A stretch of 64,000 nucleotides of DNA from a virus (taxonomy: Duplodnaviria > Heunggongvirae > Uroviricota > Caudoviricetes), in IMG/VR virus record IMGVR_UViG_2576861193_000002, one strand, 5' to 3'. The translations under genes and the position numbers were made by a program. Shown here one piece after another: positions 8,791-20,007 of the stretch (within the stretch, counting starts at the first letter, position 1; the number at the start of each line of letters is the position of its first letter). Below the pieces are notes generated by a model. The model was not told where the DNA came from, searched no databases, and saw only the letters and a list, made by a program, of their open reading frames with translations.

Positions 8791-9077
8791 AAATGACCTT
8801 TCTTTCTCCAGATTTCTTGTGTGCGAAAAACCCCTTCAGCATGCATCAGGCGCAATTCTTCTTTGGTGTAATCGCTGGTTTTTACCCGCCCGTCGATTAG
8901 ATCGTGGCATGAGCTACAGGCTATCGCCGCCTGCATATCGTGTGGTTTTGTCGCTGTTCCGCACGTCCCCGCCAGCCTGTAATGCGCCAGCACAGAGGTT
9001 TCGGGATTGTGATTGCAGTAGCCAGGGATTCTGATCTGGCACATCTGGCCTTTAGCCGCTTTACGTAAATTCACCAT
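8787..9077 (-). CDS. YbcO-like nin-region protein (DUF1364-like, Cys-rich)
   Basis: 96 aa with multiple CxxC/H motifs; translationally coupled to Q. Confidence 0.65.
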   Translation of the reverse strand: MVNLRKAAKGQMCQIRIPGYCNHNPETSVLAHYRLAGTCGTATKPHDMQAAIACSSCHDLIDGRVKTSDYTKEELRLMHAEGVFRTQEIWRKKGHL

Positions 9078-9676
9078 TACGCAAACTCCAGTAGTTGTGC
9101 GGCCACATTTTCAACTTCCTCCTGAGAGGAGAATTTACGGAACAGAATCCAGTTCCACAGCACATTCAGTACAGATTTATAAACCTGCTGAAACTCGACT
9201 TCGTCCACATTCGCAAAAGCGATGGATTTTGCCCGACGCCCACGGCTACCGTCCGGATAAATATGCTCGGTGTAAAATCCGGCCTGAATGGTTACCCACT
9301 CGCGGAAAGCCTCAAACGACTTTAGCAACGCCGTATCCCGGGTTCTACGAGTCGCAACGGTGTTAAGGTATTGCTCTGCGGCATCACTCAGGGCTGGCGT
9401 GTGTTCCCGACCAACTGATTCGCACAGGTAATCAACGAAACCAGACAGCAGTTCTCGTTCGCGAGGCGTGATCGCCCCACCGACCGGAGTCCAGTAATCG
9501 AATCCCAGTTGCAGGAGTTTGAAAAAACGCTTGTGGAATGCGTAGTTACGCACACGCTTAAAGTCTGCGTGTATCCACTCACCTATTTTGATTTGATGCA
9601 GAAAATCGCAACTCTCCGGCGTCGCCGGGAGAAGTAAACCAGAAGAAGTTTGTTTGACCAGTTGTATATGCGCCAT
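9077..9676 (-). CDS. YbcN-like nin-region protein (DUF1367-like)
   Basis: 199 aa; synteny with ybcN-ybcO-Q of lambdoid prophages. Confidence 0.65.
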   Translation of the reverse strand: MAHIQLVKQTSSGLLLPATPESCDFLHQIKIGEWIHADFKRVRNYAFHKRFFKLLQLGFDYWTPVGGAITPRERELLSGFVDYLCESVGREHTPALSDAAEQYLNTVATRRTRDTALLKSFEAFREWVTIQAGFYTEHIYPDGSRGRRAKSIAFANVDEVEFQQVYKSVLNVLWNWILFRKFSSQEEVENVAAQLLEFA

Positions 9677-9949
9677 TTCTCAATCTCTCGATGGCGCAGT
9701 GCAGCAGATGCCAGTTGTTCAGGCTGACGTATAAAGTATAAATAAACTGGTTCCAGTGTAAAGCCCCCACCTTAATGGAATAAAAACCAAACAACAGATT
9801 GCTGGGATACAAACAACGCTTATTATTAAAAGCGGTTAAACAAATTAAATTTTAATGTTATGCAAATTTGTCAGATCACCATAATATCTCATTTGAAAAC
9901 CGCTGAAATAACAATCCTATCAGGATTAATCATATTAAGGTGAGTAAAT

Positions 9950-10036
9950 ATGGAAAACAACAAATCTGCACATTACGCTCCTTTTTTATCTGTAATACTT
10001 TTTGTTTTTTGCTGTGTATGGGCATTATTTTTATAA
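9950..10036 (+). CDS. candidate 28-aa hydrophobic small protein
   Basis: ATG preceded by SD aaggtgag; MENNKSAHYAPFLSVILFVFCCVWALFL; AT-rich intergenic region next to hok. Confidence 0.3.
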   Translation: MENNKSAHYAPFLSVILFVFCCVWALFL

Positions 10037-10113
10037 AAATATTCACAGATAAAATAAACTCGCCGAATCAGGTTAAGTGTGGGTGCGTTGAGGATGCCTG
10101 ACACATCAGAGGC

Positions 10114-10135
10114 GGCGAGGGATTTCTCCCTCGCC
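10114..10135 (-). other. stable stem-loop at 3' end of hok transcript
   Basis: ggcgaggga-tttc-tccctcgcc perfect 9-bp stem just downstream of hok stop. Confidence 0.4.
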
Positions 10136-10144
10136 TAGTCACTC

Positions 10145-10300
10145 TTACTCCTCAGGTTCGTAAGCTGTGAAGACAGCGACCTCCGTCTGACCGGTTCGGA
10201 TTCGCACCTCGCAGAGGTCTTTCCTCGTTACCAGTGCCGTCACTATGACGGTTAAACAGATGACAATCAGTGCGACTAACATCGCCTTTTGCTGCTTCAT
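10145..10300 (-). CDS. hok: Hok/Gef family type I toxin (HokD/RelF-like)
   Basis: MKQQKAMLVALIVICLTVIVTALVTRKDLCEVRIRTGQTEVAVFTAYEPEE; SD aaggag upstream; in-frame upstream extension in the six-frame ORF. Confidence 0.85.
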   Translation of the reverse strand: MKQQKAMLVALIVICLTVIVTALVTRKDLCEVRIRTGQTEVAVFTAYEPEE

Positions 10301-10780
10301 AGCCTGCTTCTCCTTGCCTTCCGGCGCGTAAGAGGCTAACCTACATGTGCAAAGCATGAAATTGGCCTCAGATTAATGTTAAGCGTCTTGCCGGACGCGT
10401 AATGTTATCTGGGGCTTTTCTCTATCTGCCTTTGGTGTTCATGCCTGAGGCAGATAGCCTCAAGCACCCGCAGCAATTCTACTTAACTCCCGTCACCTCG
10501 CCAATATAAAATCAATCAGAAAGGCGATCCATAAGAACAACAGCAAGACAATAAATTGCCATTACAGCCGCAATAGCTAGCGCACATTTGAGAACCAGCA
10601 CGACAACCTCCTGTATTGGACGTACACCAGTTCTGATAAATATGAGGCTGTCTCATCATTGATTCAATATAACTATTGGGTATAGTTTCTGTGATTTTGT
10701 TCTGTAGAAATGGAACACAACAACCAGTCACCACCAGCACTTCTTTAAATACGCCAAGTCCGACGCAAGCTAACCTTCTA

Positions 10781-10804
10781 GTCCGCTTTGAGCGAGGAGC
10801 GGAC
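10781..10804. repeat. hairpin repeat R0 (GTCCGCT-10 nt-AGCGGAC)
   Basis: Same 7-bp stem as copies at 13847 and 17520. Confidence 0.55.
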
Positions 10805-11020
10805 CAAACCCGGCCAACTGACTCTTAAAGGGGCCGCAGGAATTTTTCGTCTGAACTTTCGAAGCTCCTCTCCCTGAAGACAGAAAACTTCTGTGTGCTG
10901 TGGGAATATTGAATCTTTGCCTTAGATATAAATAATTTTATCCCGCCTGAAGTTTACATTATTTTATTTATCTGTTTTTCTAAATCAGACTGCACTCCTT
11001 ACTTAAATCAGGAGCCAGTC

Positions 11021-12220
11021 ATGCCATTTGTTATTTATGTGTTTACTATCAGTGCCTTTGCGCTCGGACTCGCGGAATTTGTCCCCATTGGGCTGACAGA
11101 CGTTATGGCTCAGGGGTTGTGTGTGGGTGTGGAGCAGACCGGGGCAGCGGTTACAACCTATGCACTGGGGGCAACGTTCGCGGCACCCGTACTGTCTGCG
11201 CTGACAGCAAGCTGGAGCCGGAAAAATGTAATGCTTACAACTGCCGTTGTGTTTACTGCCGGTAGTCTGGCGGCCGCGTTTGCAGCCACATTACCTCAGC
11301 TCCTGTTAGCGCGGTTCATTGCTGGTCTGGGACACGGCCTGTTTCTGGCTGCGGCATCCAGTACCGCAGCTCGTCTTGCTGGACCGGGTAAAGCAGGCAG
11401 AGCGGTGGCTGTGGTATTTGGTGGCTTTACTCTGGCGATGGCAATCGGCGTACCGCTGAGTACATGGTTGGGGGGGGTGGTCTCATGGCGTCCAGTTCTC
11501 GGCGCTATTGCCGCTTTTGGCGCGTTCGGATTCCTTGGACTGTTGTTCGGTATGAAAGATCCCGTACGCAGCGTGCCCGGTGAACATAGTGACTCAGCAA
11601 TGCAGAATATCGGCATGCTGTTTAACCGTAAGTTGCTGGCCGGCGCGCTGGTTACGGTGCTGGCGTATGCAGGCTCGTTTACGGATTACACCTTTATCGC
11701 ACCTATTCTGACGCAGGTGACAGGGGTTACCGGAGCAACGGTGAGTCTGTTTATGCTGGTTTACGGTATTACAGCTGCGGTAGGTAATATTCTTGGTGGG
11801 AAACTTACCGACAGCATGGGGGTTAATCGTGCCAATATACTCATCATTAGCGGCATTGTTGTTGTCGTGCTTGGTATGTGGCTGCTGTCATCCTCACCGG
11901 TGAGCATGGGCATTCTGGTTGCGCTGCTGGGTATGGTGACATTTGCCGCAGTGCCGGCACTGCAGGCCCGTCTGATTGGTGTCGCTGAGCAACATGCTCC
12001 TCATGCGCATGGTGTTGCTGCCGGCCTGAATATTGCGGGCTTCAACTCAGGTATAGCGCTGGGATCAGTACTGGGCAGCATTACTATAAGCCACGCCGGT
12101 ATCGTGTATACCGGTATCAGCGGTGCGATTGTTTCTCTGCTCGGCCTGCTGTTGCTGCTTGCACAAATCCGTCGCAGCCACAGTCGTAAATTTCAACAGG
12201 TTAAAATCGTAGGCCAGTAA
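11021..12220 (+). CDS. MFS transporter (cargo gene)
   Basis: 399 aa, ~12 TM, Gly/Ala-rich MFS signature; GC-rich versus surrounding phage DNA. Confidence 0.85.
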   Translation: MPFVIYVFTISAFALGLAEFVPIGLTDVMAQGLCVGVEQTGAAVTTYALGATFAAPVLSALTASWSRKNVMLTTAVVFTAGSLAAAFAATLPQLLLARFIAGLGHGLFLAAASSTAARLAGPGKAGRAVAVVFGGFTLAMAIGVPLSTWLGGVVSWRPVLGAIAAFGAFGFLGLLFGMKDPVRSVPGEHSDSAMQNIGMLFNRKLLAGALVTVLAYAGSFTDYTFIAPILTQVTGVTGATVSLFMLVYGITAAVGNILGGKLTDSMGVNRANILIISGIVVVVLGMWLLSSSPVSMGILVALLGMVTFAAVPALQARLIGVAEQHAPHAHGVAAGLNIAGFNSGIALGSVLGSITISHAGIVYTGISGAIVSLLGLLLLLAQIRRSHSRKFQQVKIVGQ

Positions 12221-12231
12221 AGGGAGGTTAT

Positions 12232-12924
12232 ATGCTTACCCGTGAAAATATGCTTAATGGCACATTTGTCAGGGTGCATGAAGCGCTGCTCCCGGCGAAT
12301 ATGCTCTGGGACGCTGAAAAAATACGCGCATCAATGAACTCTACTCTGGAGGAGCGCCCGACGGGTGCTCCTGTCTGGATATTTGCCTACGGGTCATTGA
12401 TGTGGAATCCCGTGCTGGCGATTGAAGAAATGCAACGGGCCCGTCTGAAAGGATGGCAGCGCAGTTTCTGCATTCGTTTGATATCCGGACGAGCGACTCC
12501 TGATGTCCCCGGCAGGATGTTATCGCTCGACGAAGGTGGAATTACCGAAGGTATTGCGTTCAGACTGCCGGAATCGACTCTTATTAATGAGCTGGAAATT
12601 GTCTGGACGCGCGAGATGATAACCGGTCTTTACCGTCCGGTCTGGGCAGACGTTTCGCTAGGAAACGGTGAGGAAATTCAGGCGCTGGCTTTCGTATCAG
12701 ACAGACTGCATCCGCATTATGAACAGGACAATCTTACAGCGACCGTAGCGTTGAGCATCGCATCTGCCCGTGGAGACATTGGCACGAATGCAGATTATGT
12801 ATGGAAACTGCAGGCCACTCTGGGTGCGTTGGGAATACGGGATGATTACGTGAGTGAACTGGCCCTTGCTCTGCATGAGGCTCCCTGTAACGATAAACTT
12901 CATCAGCGAGGCGCTTCACTATGA
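12232..12924 (+). CDS. ChaC/gamma-glutamylcyclotransferase-like protein
   Basis: 230 aa; IFAYGSLMWNP motif typical of GGCT/ChaC fold. Confidence 0.7.
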   Translation: MLTRENMLNGTFVRVHEALLPANMLWDAEKIRASMNSTLEERPTGAPVWIFAYGSLMWNPVLAIEEMQRARLKGWQRSFCIRLISGRATPDVPGRMLSLDEGGITEGIAFRLPESTLINELEIVWTREMITGLYRPVWADVSLGNGEEIQALAFVSDRLHPHYEQDNLTATVALSIASARGDIGTNADYVWKLQATLGALGIRDDYVSELALALHEAPCNDKLHQRGASL

Positions 12925-13802
12925 GCCATCTGAGCCATCTGCGAACGTTTCTTGAGGCCTATCGCTCTGGCTCCTTTTCAAAGGCGGCAGAACTACTGGG
13001 CATCACTCAGCCCGCGGCGTCACAGCATATCCAGTCTCTTGAGACTCTGGTTGGTAAGCGTCTGTTTATCAGGCAGGCCAGAGGCGTGACGGCAACCGAA
13101 GCTGCGGATGAGCTTGCCCGCTCAGTTTCACCCTTCATTGATGGTCTGGAAGAAAAGCTGTCCTCTTTCCGGTCAGGCTCTGTACGCGGGGGAACAATTA
13201 ATCTGGCAGGACCGCCAGATTTTATTCATTCCCGGCTTGGGACAGTAATGGCTCCACTAATGAAGGAGGGGTATCGCCTACGCTTTCATACCGGCAATAA
13301 GCAACGTATTTATTCCCTTTTGCATGACGGGAGCGCCGATCTCGCTGTTACCGCATCTATGCCTGATGACCGTCTGTACGGCTATGCACATCTACTGACT
13401 GAACGCATGCTCCTTGTTCATGCTCCCGCCATGTCAGAGATCATCGGATCAGAACCTGGTGCTGAAACGCTTGCCTCATTACCGCTGATTGCTTATGACG
13501 AAGAGTTGCCACTGATTAGAGCGCTCTGGGCCTCCATGTTTCAGAGAGCCCCTGAGATGCAGGCTACATTCACCATTCCGGATTTACGTATTATCCGCGA
13601 CTTGGTCTGTGACGGCCACGGGTGGACAGTGCTGCCGGATTATCACTGTGACAATGACCTGAAAAGTGGTCGCCTGATTTCAGTGACACCTGCAGACCTC
13701 GCTCCGACTAATCATCTTTATCTGGTCTGGAACAAAAGGACGGCTAATAACAGCCGAACCGCCTATGTTCGGGATTACATTCTTAAAACGTTTCCGCGTT
13801 GA
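12921..13802 (+). CDS. LysR-family transcriptional regulator
   Basis: 293 aa; N-terminal HTH (…FSKAAELLGITQPAASQHIQSLE…); overlaps previous gene by 4 nt. Confidence 0.85.
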   Translation: MSHLSHLRTFLEAYRSGSFSKAAELLGITQPAASQHIQSLETLVGKRLFIRQARGVTATEAADELARSVSPFIDGLEEKLSSFRSGSVRGGTINLAGPPDFIHSRLGTVMAPLMKEGYRLRFHTGNKQRIYSLLHDGSADLAVTASMPDDRLYGYAHLLTERMLLVHAPAMSEIIGSEPGAETLASLPLIAYDEELPLIRALWASMFQRAPEMQATFTIPDLRIIRDLVCDGHGWTVLPDYHCDNDLKSGRLISVTPADLAPTNHLYLVWNKRTANNSRTAYVRDYILKTFPR

Positions 13803-13846
13803 TGTTTGAAACGGATGATTGGCGATGCGTATCATAAGTTACGTAT

Positions 13847-13870
13847 GTCCGCTTCTGGCACAAAGCAGAC
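13847..13870. repeat. hairpin repeat R1 (GTCCGCT-tctggcacaa-AGCAGAC)
   Basis: 24/30 identical to R2; sits between the LysR and DUF2254-like genes. Confidence 0.55.
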
Positions 13871-13932
13871 GCCCACTCTCACGCGAATGCTTTGCCCTTG
13901 ACTTGCCAACAACCGTATCGCTTGCTCCGCAA

Positions 13933-15225
13933 CTATGGTTTTTTATTAGAATCTTCGCCACTAAATAAATTATAATAAATTGATTTTATTAGATATCTGT
14001 CAGAATCTATATGGTCAGCACGAGTAGCATGCTCTAATGTTTCAAATGCTAGGGTTTGTGCGGCTTCAGCAAAAATTCCAGGCCAACCCTTACTCAGCAT
14101 CGACAGTCCTTTAAGTACCCTTATCTGAATTTCCCTCATACTGGCACCATCGCGCGCAACAGGTGAGAAAAAGTCTTCAAGTAGATCGTTATTCTGAAGT
14201 GGTGCAACATGTACAGAAGGATATTTCACTTCTATTTCATCAGATTTATTCTGCGCGTAAGCGGAAAGTATACGTACACCTCTGCCAATGACATCAATGG
14301 CGGTTCCAGGATCGTTCACTGCGGGGGAAAGGGCTCGGCAGGCTATTTCGGCCATGACGCTAAGACAAAATCGGGGGTCCTGAGCAAATGAACGTACATC
14401 CGAGACAATAATCGTCTCAAGTAAATCGGTGCTGATTGATGACTCCTGGCCCTGACTCAGGTACAAAACTGGCGTGGACGGATGTATGAAACTGCCCGGC
14501 TGCGCCACGAGGTATACATGACGGGGATCATTGGTCAGCAGCTTGCTGAGTTTCACCATATCAACATATTCAACATAGCCAATCTTTTTCGGATAAACTG
14601 CAACCGTTCCTTTCGGCTGTTCATTGTTCTCAAGCCATGGATATCCGCCGAGACAGGGATTTCTTGCTCTCGCAATAAATGTTTCGATGGCCGCCTGTTC
14701 TACTTTTGCCGTTGTCTCACCAACCCTCCCCAGAGAGGTCAAATGCTGTATCCAGCGAAGCAATGTGATGAGGATTAAGGCAATGACAACCAGTGTTACA
14801 ATGAATAAAATGACTCTCCCCCTTTCTCCATAAGCTCCCATATTGAGGGCAATAATCCCTACCAGACTGAAGAGAAAAGAACCGATGAAGGTGGCCAGTA
14901 CATTTTGTGTGGTGACGTCTTCAACAACTAAACGAGTAGCTCTGGGAGTCACATTAGTAGTGGCTGAACCGTAGGCTGTGACCATGATGCTCAGCGAAAA
15001 TGTGGTCACTGCCAGCATACTCGATGCCAGTATGTTCAGAATGTTATCGACTGCTTCCGCACCAACCTTCACGGAAACCGACTCAGGTATCATTGATTTA
15101 AAAAGAATTGATAAAAGGGCCGTTATTATTGCGACAATTGCGAATAACGTTGCCCTGAACCATAGTTTTTTAAATGTCTGCTTCAGCATCCATTTCCAGC
15201 GTGAAATCATTCTGCATTCCCTCAT
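13933..15225 (-). CDS. DUF2254-like membrane protein
   Basis: 430 aa; N-terminal TM helices then soluble domain. Confidence 0.55.
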   Translation of the reverse strand: MRECRMISRWKWMLKQTFKKLWFRATLFAIVAIITALLSILFKSMIPESVSVKVGAEAVDNILNILASSMLAVTTFSLSIMVTAYGSATTNVTPRATRLVVEDVTTQNVLATFIGSFLFSLVGIIALNMGAYGERGRVILFIVTLVVIALILITLLRWIQHLTSLGRVGETTAKVEQAAIETFIARARNPCLGGYPWLENNEQPKGTVAVYPKKIGYVEYVDMVKLSKLLTNDPRHVYLVAQPGSFIHPSTPVLYLSQGQESSISTDLLETIIVSDVRSFAQDPRFCLSVMAEIACRALSPAVNDPGTAIDVIGRGVRILSAYAQNKSDEIEVKYPSVHVAPLQNNDLLEDFFSPVARDGASMREIQIRVLKGLSMLSKGWPGIFAEAAQTLAFETLEHATRADHIDSDRYLIKSIYYNLFSGEDSNKKP

Positions 15226-15273
15226 ATTGCAGCCGGGATAAATAAATGCCGCCTCTGTGGCGGCATGTTGCTG

Positions 15274-17277
15274 TTAACGAACCAGATGCAGGAAGTGCAG
15301 GTGTTTTTCGTACTGGTCCAGTATGTCATTAATCAGCTGTTCCTGATTCCAGCCCATTACATCATAATTTTGGCCGCCCTCTTTGAGATAGACTTCAGCG
15401 CGATAATATCGATGTTGTTCACTCTGCTGCTCATCATTATCCAGCGCAGCGAGCGCGAAGGTCGGTGAGTTATACCCGCGAAGCCTCACTTCATATATAT
15501 AATTCAGCTCGTTGCCCAAATCGACTTCAAGGCGAATACGATCCTCGGCGGCGTCACTGATGTGGCTTATCGTTCCCTGCTTGTTAAGTTCCTCCTGAAC
15601 CAGCGTCATGGCGGGTTGGATAATGTCGTCCATAAAACGTTTCACAAGAGAGCGCTTCGGCAAATACGCGATATTGCGTAACCTTCTCTGCCAGGGAATT
15701 GGGTTACGTGCAGCCGTAGGAGCAATAGTCGCCATGCTAAGGCTTTCACGCTTGGTCAAATCCCGACGCAGGGCTTTTAACAGTCCGTATATGGATATTA
15801 ATAAGATAACTGAGAAGGGCAATGCACTCGCTATCGTTACGGTTTGCAACGCACTCAGCCCCCCTGCGATCAGCAGGGCAATAGCAACAACGCCCATGAG
15901 CGATGCCCAGAAAATTCGCTGCCAGACGGGCGTGTTTGCCACCCCACCTGATGCCAGAGTATCCACAACCATTGCCCCCGAATCAGCAGACGTTACAAAG
16001 AAGACGATGACCATCGCCATTGCAATGAATGACAGCACGGAAGAGAACGGGAAATGCTCCAGGAAATTAAACAGGGCAAGCGCAACATCCTGCTGAACGG
16101 TATTGGCGAGGTCAGTGGCGCCCTGGTTCATGATGAGATAGATGGCGCTGTTTCCAAACACCGTCATCCACATGAGCGTAAAGCCGGCGGGAACAAACAA
16201 CACGCCAGTCACGAACTCACGAATTGTCCTGCCGCGGGAAACGCGTGCAATGAACATACCTACAAACGGCGACCATGAAAGCCACCATCCCCAGTATAAT
16301 AATGTCCAGCCCCCCAGCCAGTTGCTCGACTTGGGTTCATACGCGTAAAGGTTGAACGTTTTACTCACCAGTTCCGACAGATAACCACCCGTATTTTCCA
16401 CAAATGACTTCAGCAGAAGCACAGTGGGACCCAGGCACAAGACCAGCGCCAGGAGCAACACCGCCAGGCCCAGATTAAGCTCAGACAGGATGCGTATTCC
16501 CTTGTCCAGGCCGGACACCACCGAAATCGTCGCTAACCCCGTGATGACCACGATCAAAATGACCTGTACCGTTTCATTGATGGGCACGCCGAAAAGATGG
16601 TTCAAACCGGCATTCACCTGCAATACACCGTAACCCAGCGATGTTGCAACGCCAAAGACAGTGCCTATCACGGCGAAGATATCAACCGCGTGGCCTATAG
16701 GCCCGTAAATGCGATCGCCGATAATGGGATAGAGCGCAGAACGCAGCGTTAAAGGCAGACCGTGACGGTAACTGAAAAAGGCCAGAATCAGCGCCACGAT
16801 GGCATAAATTGCCCATGCGTGCAGACCCCAGTGGAAGAACGTCAGGCGCATGGCTTCCTTCGCTGCCGCAACGGTCTCTGGAGTGCCGACAGGTGGCGAA
16901 AGATAATGCATCACAGGTTCGGCAACGCCAAAGAACATCAGGCCGATCCCCATCCCTGCCGAAAAAAGCATCGCGAACCAGGAGTGGTAGCTGAAATCAG
17001 GCTGCGCATGGTCTGGGCCCAGCTTTATATCACCGTAACGTGAGAGTCCAAGGAACGTGACGCTCAGTAAAATCAGGGCCACAGCAAGTATGTAGAACCA
17101 GCTGGCATTCGTGAAGATTTGTTGCTGAAGTAGTTTAAAATTTTTGTCGGCGACATCCGGGAATACGGCGGCAAAGGCGACAAGAAGGAAAATTAGCAAA
17201 GCAGATGTAAAGAATACCGCTTTGTTAATCTGGCTTGTAGACTTCTTTGGGGTTGTATCATTTTCACTCATAATCAT
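15274..17277 (-). CDS. BCCT-family (betaine/carnitine/choline) transporter
   Basis: 667 aa; 12-TM BCCT-like core with Trp-rich signature (…GGWTLLYWGWWLSWSPFVGMFIARVSRGRTIREF…). Confidence 0.85.
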   Translation of the reverse strand: MIMSENDTTPKKSTSQINKAVFFTSALLIFLLVAFAAVFPDVADKNFKLLQQQIFTNASWFYILAVALILLSVTFLGLSRYGDIKLGPDHAQPDFSYHSWFAMLFSAGMGIGLMFFGVAEPVMHYLSPPVGTPETVAAAKEAMRLTFFHWGLHAWAIYAIVALILAFFSYRHGLPLTLRSALYPIIGDRIYGPIGHAVDIFAVIGTVFGVATSLGYGVLQVNAGLNHLFGVPINETVQVILIVVITGLATISVVSGLDKGIRILSELNLGLAVLLLALVLCLGPTVLLLKSFVENTGGYLSELVSKTFNLYAYEPKSSNWLGGWTLLYWGWWLSWSPFVGMFIARVSRGRTIREFVTGVLFVPAGFTLMWMTVFGNSAIYLIMNQGATDLANTVQQDVALALFNFLEHFPFSSVLSFIAMAMVIVFFVTSADSGAMVVDTLASGGVANTPVWQRIFWASLMGVVAIALLIAGGLSALQTVTIASALPFSVILLISIYGLLKALRRDLTKRESLSMATIAPTAARNPIPWQRRLRNIAYLPKRSLVKRFMDDIIQPAMTLVQEELNKQGTISHISDAAEDRIRLEVDLGNELNYIYEVRLRGYNSPTFALAALDNDEQQSEQHRYYRAEVYLKEGGQNYDVMGWNQEQLINDILDQYEKHLHFLHLVR

Positions 17278-17519
17278 TTATTCCATTAATTAAATCCGCA
17301 CTGGATAGAAGGTACTACCTCTCACAGAGTAGCAAAGTTCAACTGGCTATGCGGGGTTAATCGGAATGCATGGTGGAATGAGTGCCGATACAAATCATCC
17401 TATATTCTAAGGAGTTTTAAGTTACTCAGCCTGCCAATTACTGGGGCATTTAATTTGTATGATCTGTATCAAAGCTGGGATATAAGTTAAGTGAAGTATA
17501 TTAGGCACGAATTACCAGC

Positions 17520-17611: not shown

Positions 17612-18034
17612 TCACTTCAATAAATACCGAACATCCCCCTGATAAAACGACAATATGCGCTGCATAACTTCGCTCTTCCGGCACTCGCGACAGATTATGT
17701 TTAGGCGACTGTCGTAGCGACGTATTTCTCCGTCAGGTAATGACCAGATAAGGTCCGGATCAACCACAACCGGTTTCTTCAGCTTTGCCCTCGATAATTT
17801 TTTGCGGGCATTTTGCCAGTCTTTACGAGCCTGTTCAGACGGGAATAACCCGTAGCCAGAATTGTATACATCGCCACTGGCAACCAGCTCTCTGGCCAGA
17901 ACGCTCATCAGATATCTTGTTGCCCCAGTTTTAGCTTCCAGTTGTCGTAACGTCTCGCGCCCACTCTGGCGTACGAGTTCAAGAACCTGCCCTTTAATTT
18001 TTTCCCGCTCTTCTTGTGTAAAAACTTTTGCCAC
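17612..18034 (-). CDS. hypothetical phage replication-region protein
   Basis: 140 aa ORF immediately downstream of O-like initiator; no recognised helicase-loader motifs. Confidence 0.45.
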   Translation of the reverse strand: MAKVFTQEEREKIKGQVLELVRQSGRETLRQLEAKTGATRYLMSVLARELVASGDVYNSGYGLFPSEQARKDWQNARKKLSRAKLKKPVVVDPDLIWSLPDGEIRRYDSRLNIICRECRKSEVMQRILSFYQGDVRYLLK

Positions 18035-18074
18035 AAGCCCTCCTGAAAATTACCTCATGACCAGAAATTAACAC

Positions 18075-19151
18075 TTACCCCCTGAAGCCCGGCGGAATTT
18101 CGTTATCCGGTTCAGAAATATGATTCACACAACGCTGGTTGTTCGTGCCGCTTACCGGGAGCAACCAGGGGTTCTCAAAATTCCGGTCCGGTCCAAAAAA
18201 CGTCGTCGCTCGCTGAACAAATTCCGTTCCCGTTTTCCCGGTAGCCGCCAAGTATCTTGCGTAACGCCTCACGCCATCCAGCATGGCCTCTGGTGGCACC
18301 CCCTCGCGTAATCTGGCCTTCCAGGCACTGAAAGCGGATTTCTTCGGGTTTGCCCCAGCACGCAACGGGTACTCCCGCCAGACCTGTTCGAACACATCCG
18401 GATAATCCACTCGTCCCACAGACTGCCCGGTGTTTTCCGGGACTACCCGATCGGCTTCCCGCTGAATGGCGGAATCGGCTTCAGGCTGCTGCAGTTGGTG
18501 TGATTGCTCCGCCCTTGCGGTCATCACCTGCTGCACAGCGCCCGAATCGGCTTTCAGCGCATACGCTGAATCGGCTTCCGGTGTCGTGCCTGCTGGCTGA
18601 CCAAGATTGACGGTCTGAACATCCCCTGCCTGGTTCGTGGCGTTTTTTACGCCATGGACCATAGTGTTTTGATCTTCTTGATCTGTATCTTTATCTGTAT
18701 CTTTATCTGTCGTGACTCGTCGTGACATGTGCGTGACATTTCGTGACGCGCCGTGACAATCGCCATTTTGTTCCCGCTTTCTTTCCCTCTCTCGCTGCGC
18801 CCTCTTGCGCTCTGCAGGAGATTTTGCGGTTTGCGAAATATTGCCGTTGTCCTCTTTAAGCACCTGGCGTTTTTCCCATCCAGTGATTAAATCACCATCA
18901 AGTACCCGCCCCTGCATCGTCTGCAAAATTGAATCAATTACCTCTTCTGTCACGTCGAGCGCACTTGCCAAATCTTCTGTCGTGACATCAATGTGACCTC
19001 GCGTGACATTTCGTGACGCGCTCACCAGGAGGTGGATATACACTGCCATCACTGTTGCAATTGGCTGTCCTGACACCCTGGCAATTGTTCGCCACTTAGG
19101 GTCATTTGGCATGTCATGCCATAATCTGAGCCAGGCGTTAGCCATACTCAC
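18075..19151 (-). CDS. replication initiator (O-like N-terminus, YdaU/DnaT-like DUF1376-type C-terminus)
   Basis: 358 aa; encloses two iteron clusters; acidic DKDTDKDTD linker; position after ydaS/ydaT. Confidence 0.65.
   Translation of the reverse strand: MSMANAWLRLWHDMPNDPKWRTIARVSGQPIATVMAVYIHLLVSASRNVTRGHIDVTTEDLASALDVTEEVIDSILQTMQGRVLDGDLITGWEKRQVLKEDNGNISQTAKSPAERKRAQRERERKREQNGDCHGASRNVTHMSRRVTTDKDTDKDTDQEDQNTMVHGVKNATNQAGDVQTVNLGQPAGTTPEADSAYALKADSGAVQQVMTARAEQSHQLQQPEADSAIQREADRVVPENTGQSVGRVDYPDVFEQVWREYPLRAGANPKKSAFSAWKARLREGVPPEAMLDGVRRYARYLAATGKTGTEFVQRATTFFGPDRNFENPWLLPVSGTNNQRCVNHISEPDNEIPPGFRG
18682..18757. repeat. candidate replication origin: AT-rich tandem repeats plus five CGTGAC iterons at ~10-bp spacing
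   Basis: CGTGAC at 18711, 18721, 18732, 18742, 18752 preceded by atctgtatcttt tandem repeats, inside the initiator gene. Confidence 0.55.
18981..19017. repeat. second iteron cluster (4 x C/TGTGAC at 10-bp spacing)
   Basis: Motif starts at 18981, 18992, 19002, 19012. Confidence 0.5.
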
Positions 19152-19216
19152 CTCTTTTGATACCGAATCTTTTTACTCACAAATTGCCGGAAGTGATCCG
19201 GTATGAATATTGCGAG

Positions 19217-19642
19217 TCAATGCACAGCCACAATATTTCCTGCAGGGCCACCACGATTCATCTGGTTGAAACCAGCGATCGCCACTGCGACAAAATCATC
19301 AGCGTCTCTCACCAGTCGTTCCCGCGTCTCCACTAGTTCCCGAAAATAGGCTGAGCTATGGCTGCGCATTCGGGCCACCAGCAGAGGTGGCATTGCTTTT
19401 TCGATAGCTGGTAACAACGCCTGAATTTTTTCAACTGCATCAGGGGTGTCTTTCTCTACCCAGCGGAAAATTTTCTGGGTATTGCGAGCCAGGGCTTCCG
19501 GATGGCTGTCGTCATACAGTTCTGGGAACGTCATACCCAGTTCAAAATAAGCCCTGGTTATTTCAGCTGCCGGAACTTTTTCACCGTCCGGATGCGCCCA
19601 GGCATTCATCGCCATGCGGATGTGTTCATGCTTGATTTTCAT
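19217..19642 (-). CDS. ydaT: YdaT-like protein (CII-like regulator / putative toxin domain)
   Basis: 141 aa; synteny racR - ydaS - ydaT - initiator as in Rac. Confidence 0.65.
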   Translation of the reverse strand: MKIKHEHIRMAMNAWAHPDGEKVPAAEITRAYFELGMTFPELYDDSHPEALARNTQKIFRWVEKDTPDAVEKIQALLPAIEKAMPPLLVARMRSHSSAYFRELVETRERLVRDADDFVAVAIAGFNQMNRGGPAGNIVAVH

Positions 19643-19907: not shown

Positions 19908-20007
19908 AGCTACTCCTTAGTAAACACAGCAAAGAATACCCATAGGTAAACAAAAGTCAATACCCACAGGTTGTTTACCTTGCAGTAATCGCATCTATTA
20001 TTTACCT
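19908..20007. promoter_or_regulatory. divergent immunity promoter/operator region (pR/pRM-like)
   Basis: Three related dyad sites of the TACCCAT(A/G)GGTA family (aatacccataggtaaaca, tacccacaggttgtttacc, tttacctatgg). Confidence 0.55.

Follow-up and report, generated by a model that had tools for sequence, protein, structure and literature searches.

The prophage sequence IMGVR_UViG_2576861193_000002 (IMG/VR; Caudoviricetes), analysed here as a stretch of 64,000 nucleotides that we refer to as the window, carries two arrays of a short repeat and an AT-rich tract inside its replication initiator gene. Relatives of this gene in many bacteria preserve the repeats and the AT-rich stretch at the DNA level, and a phage replication origin is therefore very probable. 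In our assessment the arrays and the tract together most likely constitute an intragenic iteron origin of the prophage, which would work like ori-lambda or SPP1 oriL. An origin of this kind is unsurprising in principle; the comparative evidence for it is unusually clean, and the initiator family concerned is undescribed. The gene and the DNA elements on which this reading rests are as follows.

18075-19145, minus strand: replication initiator gene, 356 amino acids, with ATG at 19145 (the RefSeq start)
18711-18757, minus strand: proximal iteron array (cluster 1), five GTCACG on the sense strand, spacing 10/11/10/10 bp
18981-19017, minus strand: distal iteron array (cluster 2), three GTCACG and one GTCACA variant on the sense strand, spacing 10/10/11 bp
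18949-18954, plus strand: single inverted iteron copy, GTCACG
18662-18710, no strand assigned: AT-rich tract, presumed DNA-unwinding element, 49 bp, GC fraction 0.30 vs 0.54 for the gene
18631-18661, no strand assigned: imperfect inverted repeat directly past the AT-rich tract, 13-nt arms (11 of 13 positions complementary), 5-nt loop

The mechanically derived open reading frame (ORF), 18075-19151, begins with a GTG at 19151, two codons before the ATG, and residue numbers count from this GTG throughout.

Read on the plus strand, the proximal array consists of CGTGAC at 18711, 18721, 18732, 18742 and 18752, and the distal array, 260 bp away, of exact CGTGAC copies at 18981, 19002 and 19012 together with a TGTGAC variant at 18992. 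The proximal units follow the approximate consensus caaTGTCACGc, have a core of 6-8 bp with the asymmetric GTCACG and are arranged head-to-tail; Tandem Repeats Finder (TRF) reports a 10-bp tandem array at 18709-18758. No hexamer in the window other than CGTGAC reaches five copies in 50 bp; the second densest reaches three, and none of 100 Markov-1 simulated windows yielded a five-copy hexamer cluster. Outside the initiator gene the hexamer is at background, with 27 of its 36 window matches located there and 23 +/- 5 expected for the window as a whole. The two clusters also have in common a perfect 21-nt repeat, GCGTGACATTTCGTGACGCGC, at 18731 and 19001. We found no sequence within one mismatch of the DnaA box TTATCCACA between 17900 and 19400, and no Rfam family matches.

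Both arrays are coding sequence. The proximal array codes for CHGASRNVTHMSRRVTT (C132-T148) in a disordered linker; its sense strand reads TGT CAC GGC GCG TCA CGA AAT GTC ACG CAC ATG TCA CGA CGA GTC ACG ACA, in which GTCACG is found in all three frames, read as CH/G, SR and VT. The distal array codes for A45-T57, the loop preceding the helix-turn-helix, and the inverted copy for D66-V67-T68, the turn before the putative recognition helix. A preliminary description of this DNA had reported five CGTGAC repeats at 10-11 bp spacing with AT-rich tandem repeats beside them, and on both points we agree. Its second cluster of four stands only if the TGTGAC variant or the inverted copy is counted, as there are three exact copies. 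It had also assigned the peptide DKDTDKDTD to the first cluster, which is wrong: the cluster encodes the peptide given above, and it is the adjoining AT-rich 12-mers that encode DKDTDKDTDQEDQ. Nor does the region start at 18682, as had been proposed; the AT-rich tract begins further left, at about 18662.

The tandem repeats within the AT-rich tract are three 12-bp units, TCTTTATCTGTA, at 18676-18711 (2.9 copies at 18676-18710 according to TRF), and two GATC sites are located inside the tract at 18671 and 18680. The segment 18667-18706 is the least stable 40-bp duplex of the gene, falls within the lowest 0.6% of the window, and comes right after the proximal array in the direction of transcription. 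The inverted repeat beyond the tract is a possible, weakly supported third origin element. Shigella phage 75/02 Stx has a related hairpin, and inverted repeats past the AT tract are significantly enriched across the family; this enrichment is small (mean best stem 6.7 vs 5.9 matches), and we therefore treat a palindrome at this position as a weak lambda-like feature of the family.

The family defined by the N-terminal domain of the initiator is large, with 912 matches in a word-indexed search and 1013 clusters at 50% identity (E <= 1e-10) in an exhaustive one. The domain is nearly always at the protein N-terminus, and the proteins are 230-390 amino acids long. Scanning viral contigs with this domain recovered 80 loci that are all 99% identical, and hence uninformative for comparison. 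A scan of species-representative genomes recovered 53 loci, from Gamma-, Beta- and Alphaproteobacteria, Acidobacteria and other metagenome-assembled genomes (MAGs); 47 of these were anchored and aligned, and a few loci have no assigned repeat type. According to the preliminary description, absence of the repeats from homologous initiator genes would speak against an origin. They are present: all loci of at least about 57% identity carry GTCACG arrays around +130-165 and +380-470 nt of the gene, with a spacing of 10 or 11 bp, and in 24 GTCACG-type loci the gene offsets of both arrays coincide. The motif occurs 8.65 times per kb in the gene and 0.36 times per kb in the flanking DNA, of which about 4.5 kb was covered per locus. 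The inverted copy is found in about half of the GTCACG-type homologues, where its Val codon is GTG in 19 of 19 cases.

Distant homologues lack GTCACG and have another hexamer at both positions, either GTAACG (six loci) or CGAACG(C) (eleven loci); one further locus is of the AACGCCAG type, with repeats at the proximal position only. The AT-rich tract is likewise kept. At its position the family has AGATAAAGATAAAGA, and the 45 nt past the last proximal iteron read (C)TAGATAAAGATAAAGA... across the family, with a GC fraction of 0.22-0.38 even in genes of 60-68% GC. The D-K-D that follows the proximal array is encoded as GAT AAA GAT in 95-100% of homologues.

To separate selection on DNA from selection on protein, we examined codon choice in 22 GTCACG-type genes at alignment columns with a conserved, degenerate amino acid. 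Relative codon entropy is 0.14 in columns that overlap the motif vs 0.78 elsewhere (P = 1e-7, Mann-Whitney test), and the modal codon accounts for fractions of 0.94 and 0.54, respectively. The freezing of codons is seen in the distal array, which encodes part of a folded domain (GTC ACG in 22/22 genes; GGT CAC in 22/22 and 21/21), as well as in the proximal array (TCA in 21-22/22, CAC in 20/20, GTC in 22/22). At conserved residues outside the motif nearly all synonymous codons are used; Pro15, for example, is CCA in 7 genes, CCG in 6, CCT in 2 and CCC in 7. Because synonymous variation elsewhere in the same genes is near saturation, the conservation of these codons is not an artefact of recent ancestry. 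The repeats are thus kept by selection on the DNA and not on the protein.

Repeat number and repeat type both vary within the family. In the homologues L086, L105, L107, L109, L110 and L126, extra units of the distal array, about 130-260 nt into the initiator gene, result in loop insertions of 7-22 residues composed of iteron-derived peptides such as TCHGVSL and GITCHDMSRENVTNVTFVTCHEINLV. These units lie in a loop of the winged-helix-like domain, and the copy number of putative binding sites therefore varies inside a folded domain. On a tree from which the iteron-encoded columns were left out, iteron types follow clades largely, although not perfectly. GTCACG-type and CGAACG-type proteins are separated perfectly by the iteron-encoded loop 47-57, for which the link is trivial, and by K116, Q119 and a nine-residue indel at 103-111; these last three are not iteron-encoded and adjoin a basic helix, and the putative recognition helix does not discriminate between repeat types. 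The distal-array loop is not supported as the sole determinant of specificity, as K116, Q119 and the indel discriminate equally well. The association between repeat type and residues fits recognition of each repeat by its own initiator.

Comparison of individual genes points to a modular organisation. The protein of Pseudomonas phage P7869 has only residues 3-140 in common with the window initiator (69.5% identity), and is followed by a primase-helicase gene; its gene has both GTCACG arrays and the AT tract (GATAAAGATACAG, GATAAAGATACAGAAGAAG) at the same positions. The protein of Shigella phage 75/02 Stx has only residues 160-358 in common (63%), its N-terminal domain is different, a DnaC-like loader gene comes next, and its initiator gene contains no GTCACG. 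In that gene the equivalent linker is encoded by a purine-rich tract, (GAACAG)n (L003:2460-2510), coding QEQEQEQ, which is followed by the same hairpin-forming LVHG...AT segment as in the window. As this hairpin segment is common to the two genes, the module junction can be placed just past the AT-rich or purine-rich tract. Across the family the conserved alignment ends at ...CHxESRNVT(T/L)DKD(K/T)D, beyond which the C-terminal domains are mutually unrelated, and the next gene is lambda-P-like, DnaC/IstB-like, DnaB-like or a primase-helicase gene. At the level of sequence comparison, the N-terminal domain, the arrays and the AT tract are shown to be inherited as one unit, with C-terminal domains and helicase or loader partners swapped.

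Two exceptions to the usual linker were observed in a Serratia MAG (L128:2501-3690) and a Pantoea sp. (L135:2501-3850). In these homologues the N-terminal domain is followed at once by a GIY-YIG nuclease-like motif (YVYxV...GxSxNPWxR) in place of the iteron/DK linker of the others, and the typical arrays are lacking. The N-terminal/iteron module is also carried by two 50.9-kb P. aeruginosa sequences deposited as plasmids (CP137943.1 and CP124671.1), which are about the size of P7869 and are probably circular episomal phage genomes; this hints that the module is able to maintain an extrachromosomal form. The plasmid collection yielded no clear autonomous replicon, its other matches being large E. 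coli plasmids with prophage pieces.

The initiator itself matches PHROG 3729 ('replication initiation protein') end to end (E = 2e-257), and relatives are named 'phage replisome organizer' by NCBI and some depositors, or 'DnaT-like ssDNA-binding domain-containing protein'. No Pfam family is above threshold, and Rep_3, the family of RepA-type initiators of iteron plasmids, gives no match. Lambdoid proteins annotated as 'O' match only its C-terminal part. The regions of the protein to which we refer are the following.

18762-19145, minus strand: coding region of the N-terminal domain (residues 3-95, predicted winged-helix-like) and the basic helix (residues 112-129), the presumed iteron-binding module
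18078-18401, minus strand: exchangeable C-terminal helical domain, residues 251-358 (PHROGs 1701, 9327 and 270), the presumed helicase-recruitment module
18078-18149, minus strand: DnaT-like tail, residues 335-358, ...VNHISEPDNEIPPGFRG

An AlphaFold model built from an alignment of 40 sequences predicts, in the N-terminal domain, helices at residues 4-16, 18-27, 31-47, 58-65 and 69-79 and a beta-hairpin at 80-90, with a predicted local distance difference test (pLDDT) score of 86-98 over residues 11-90. Beyond this domain come the basic helix at 112-129, a region of low confidence from about 130 to 250, where pLDDT averages 51 over residues 131-140 and stays under 50 for most of residues 140-247, and finally the helical C-terminal domain (251-318). 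The proximal array and the AT tract code for residues 132-161, between the folded regions 4-95/112-129 and 251-318, and because confidence is low there they are predicted to encode a disordered linker, as in lambda O. The tail of the protein (...IPPGFRG) matches the C-terminal end of DnaT, a primosomal protein of E. coli (NCBIfam NF002770, positions 156-179; PDB entries 6aep, 2ru8 and 9zbt_D), and is the sole match when PDB is searched with the initiator sequence. The same tail ends YdaU of E. coli K-12 and several family members with otherwise different C-terminal domains. It may act as a mimic that recruits the helicase or the primosome, and might in this way stand in for a phage loader.

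These features suggest how initiation could proceed. The initiator would be translated from a pR-like early transcript, and its N-terminal winged-helix-like domain, perhaps with the type-specific basic helix, would bind the proximal array head-to-tail, with each helical turn taking one monomer and all monomers on the same face of the DNA. The oligomer formed in this way, to which protein on the distal array 260 bp upstream would probably contribute, would stress and melt the AT tract, after which the C-terminal domain with its DnaT-like tail could recruit the host helicase DnaB. The distal array would be either part of the initiation complex or a site of copy control or autoregulation. As a tentative extension of the origin reading, which we consider possible though doubtful, the distal array would be a dual-coding element within the initiator's own DNA-binding-domain sequence, and the two arrays would form a looped two-site origin or an origin-plus-control unit. 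If this is true, the architecture is distinct from the single-array design of lambda, and perhaps extends to DUF1376/YdaU initiators; the distal array would switch together with the proximal array, rewriting a surface loop each time.

Several observations weigh against an origin of the proposed kind. The initiator has no match to the lambda O family (PF04492, Phage_rep_O) even at E <= 10, and its alignment with PF09681 (Phage_rep_org_N), which is near full length (residues 7-124 vs profile positions 1-118 of 121), scores 12.8 bits (E = 0.12), below the cut-off of 23.3. A fold search of PDB with the full-length model gave no significant match, retrieving winged-helix DNA-binding proteins only, at E > 0.4, and the winged-helix assignment is for this reason only suggestive. 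The iteron core is short and lacks the dyad symmetry of the lambda iterons, and the association between repeat types and residues could in part reflect shared ancestry. No helicase loader gene adjoins the initiator gene in the window, and the Rac-site prophage in which it is located may be defective. Literature searches found no experimental report of binding, melting or replication for any member of the family, and no description of its origin or motif.

The distal array is without parallel in lambda, and part of the feature may therefore serve control and not initiation. Taken further, the repeats could bind the initiator mainly as control sites, acting by titration or handcuffing or as an autoregulatory roadblock to transcription, with the origin elsewhere; a narrower version of this explanation concerns the distal array only. 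The incA locus of P1 and the incC locus of F exert control by titration or handcuffing, and the two arrays in the window are 260 bp apart, as in iteron plasmids that have an origin array and a control array. The distal array has no adjoining AT-rich tract, and both arrays are inside a transcribed gene, where bound protein could block RNA polymerase. Against this, a strongly conserved AT tract invariably comes directly after the proximal array, an arrangement that is the signature of an initiation site, and the motif is not enriched elsewhere in the flanks of the homologous loci or in the window, so that no alternative iteron origin is in view. We regard control as the main role of the repeats as unlikely. 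It is very unlikely that they bind a different protein, such as a host factor, the prophage repressor, the YdaT/cII-like protein or the DUF977 protein. Neighbouring genes do encode DNA-binding proteins, but the N-terminal domain of the initiator is the sole constant companion of the arrays across loci: the repressor, cro, cII-like and downstream genes differ among the window, P7869 and other loci, the hosts span Gamma-, Beta- and Alphaproteobacteria and Acidobacteria, and the motif changes with initiator subtype. Nor are there DnaA-box-like sequences in 17900-19400.

The arrays are transcribed, and selection at synonymous sites cannot by itself distinguish a function in DNA from one in RNA; the repeats could thus act in mRNA as a structural or protein-binding element or in the control of translation. 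We consider this highly improbable, given that the 10-11-nt period is the helical repeat of B-DNA, that the inverted copy is conserved, that Rfam holds no match and that the adjoining tract of duplex instability is conserved whatever the GC content of the host. Finally, the repeats could lack any function of their own and have arisen from a repetitive peptide, or through replication slippage where a low-complexity linker is encoded. The linker encoded by the proximal array and the DK/DT repeats is indeed disordered and of low complexity, and homologues differ in the number of units. Yet the hexamer is found in three reading frames, giving different peptides, synonymous sites are frozen inside the motif only, and the distal array is in a folded domain; moreover, the pattern persists across phyla, with both arrays switching motif together. 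The probability that the repeats have no function is, in our view, close to negligible.

The region is 100% identical to many E. coli chromosomes, in which the prophage occupies the Rac site, with the Rac-site markers intR, xisR, recET, kilR and sieB adjoining ttcA. RefSeq labels the initiator a hypothetical protein (WP_001262352.1) and marks no origin. Immediately upstream, the initiator ORF is preceded on its strand by a YdaT/cII-like and a YdaS/cro-like gene, which the repressor gene faces; with repressor, cro-like and cII/YdaT-like genes before it, the ORF is in the position of gene O of lambda. On its 3' side the window has only a DUF977/Ren-like gene, and the same is true of the complete genome of phage Tritos, which like phage vB_EcoS-689R5 has this module. 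A scan for promoters and terminators stayed at chance level and picked out no more than two divergent promoter-like sequences (19933-20001). The prophage carries cargo genes between the DUF977 gene and hokD (window positions of about 8900-17300), for a BCCT transporter, a DUF2254 protein, a LysR regulator, a gamma-glutamylcyclotransferase and an MFS transporter, where Rac of K-12 has trkG; IS5 and a tolA fragment are found further left in the window.

The candidate origin would serve a large, uncharacterised family of phage initiators (about 1,000 clusters at 50% identity) that is common in prophages of E. coli (including O157), Shigella, Pseudomonas and Bordetella. The family is also a clean natural case of overlapping codes, in which a protein has its codons, and even the length of one loop, constrained by the very arrays to which it presumably binds. 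With three or more iteron 'alleles' in existence, specificity and incompatibility could be dissected. Origin and initiator together may form a compact replicon and a marker for typing prophage replication modules, and could possibly be used to predict cross-inhibition among co-resident prophages.

Two clusters of one initiator-binding repeat, a few hundred bp or more apart, are known from P1 (oriR/incA), F (oriS/incC) and phage P4 (ori/crr). In these systems one cluster initiates and the other controls or enhances initiation, and the repeats of P4 are short octamers. Their initiators belong to the Rep_3/RepA family or, in P4, are the alpha protein; the arrays flank the rep gene or lie outside it, and P1 and F use DnaA boxes. 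The window resembles these replicons in having two separated clusters of the same repeat. It differs from them in that its initiator is unrelated, its arrays are inside coding sequence and no DnaA box was found in the interval searched.

A closer parallel in design is oriL of phage SPP1, which is embedded in gene 38, the gene of the replisome organizer G38P, and consists of AB boxes and an unwinding element (PMC5737612). In both cases repeated boxes, bound by the organizer in SPP1, and an AT-rich unwinding element are located inside the organizer's own gene, and NCBI gives the window family the name 'phage replisome organizer'; its alignment with PF09681 spans the profile but stays below the cut-off. 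The two differ in repeat sequence and layout, and in that both arrays of the window are in one gene, whereas the second site of SPP1, oriR, is far away; hosts of the window family are Proteobacteria and Acidobacteria, not Firmicutes.

The Rac prophage of E. coli K-12 has a reported active origin, oriJ (PMC3945230, legend of Figure S3). No origin feature is annotated in the ydaU region of Rac in RefSeq, nor is the position of oriJ. The ydaU gene is at the same chromosomal site, by ttcA, and in the same operon position as the window initiator gene, and its product has the same C-terminal ...IPPGFRG tail. It also has repeats of its own, (A/G)TGTTSAA, two of them in the part coding for the N-terminal domain and four near an almost identical tract, AATAAAGATACAGATAAAGAT, which repeats the two-site plan of the window gene.

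L138:2263-2625, corresponding to about 1421262-1421624 of NC_000913.3: repeat region of K-12 Rac ydaU

Six of the eight TGTTSAA copies in 7 kb are in the 5' half of ydaU, one of the four beside AATAAAGATACAGATAAAGAT is inverted, and a C7/G6 palindrome adjoins. Judged by this layout, the repeat region is probably the core of oriJ. The two genes differ in their repeats, which are unrelated, and in the N-terminal domain, which is DUF1376 in YdaU and is not found in the window protein; in a BLASTP comparison the two proteins have only the C-terminal tail and linker in common. A DnaC-like gene, ydaV, adjoins ydaU, whereas the window initiator gene has no such neighbour.

The most extensive likeness is to ori-lambda, which is in the middle of gene O and consists of iterons and an AT-rich tract (PMC7466680). 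The preliminary description had seen an O-like initiator with a lambda-style origin; the lambda layout within an initiator gene is supported by our results, and kinship with O is not, as PF04492 gives no match. The iterons of the window are head-to-tail at 10-11 bp, unlike those of lambda, which are dyad-symmetric, about 19 bp long and each bound by an O dimer; there is a second array 260 bp upstream within the sequence coding for the DNA-binding domain; and the prophage has no P-like gene. What the two systems have in common is the arrangement. In both, the initiator gene comes after cro and cII-like genes, and the origin is inside it, in the DNA that codes for the linker between domains. Read in the direction of transcription, iterons come first, then the AT-rich tract and then a palindrome-like element, with at least four direct repeats before the AT-rich tract; here there are five, in an arrangement conserved throughout the family. 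In both, finally, the N-terminal domain and the origin form a unit of specificity, and the C-terminal domain co-varies with the partner that loads the helicase.

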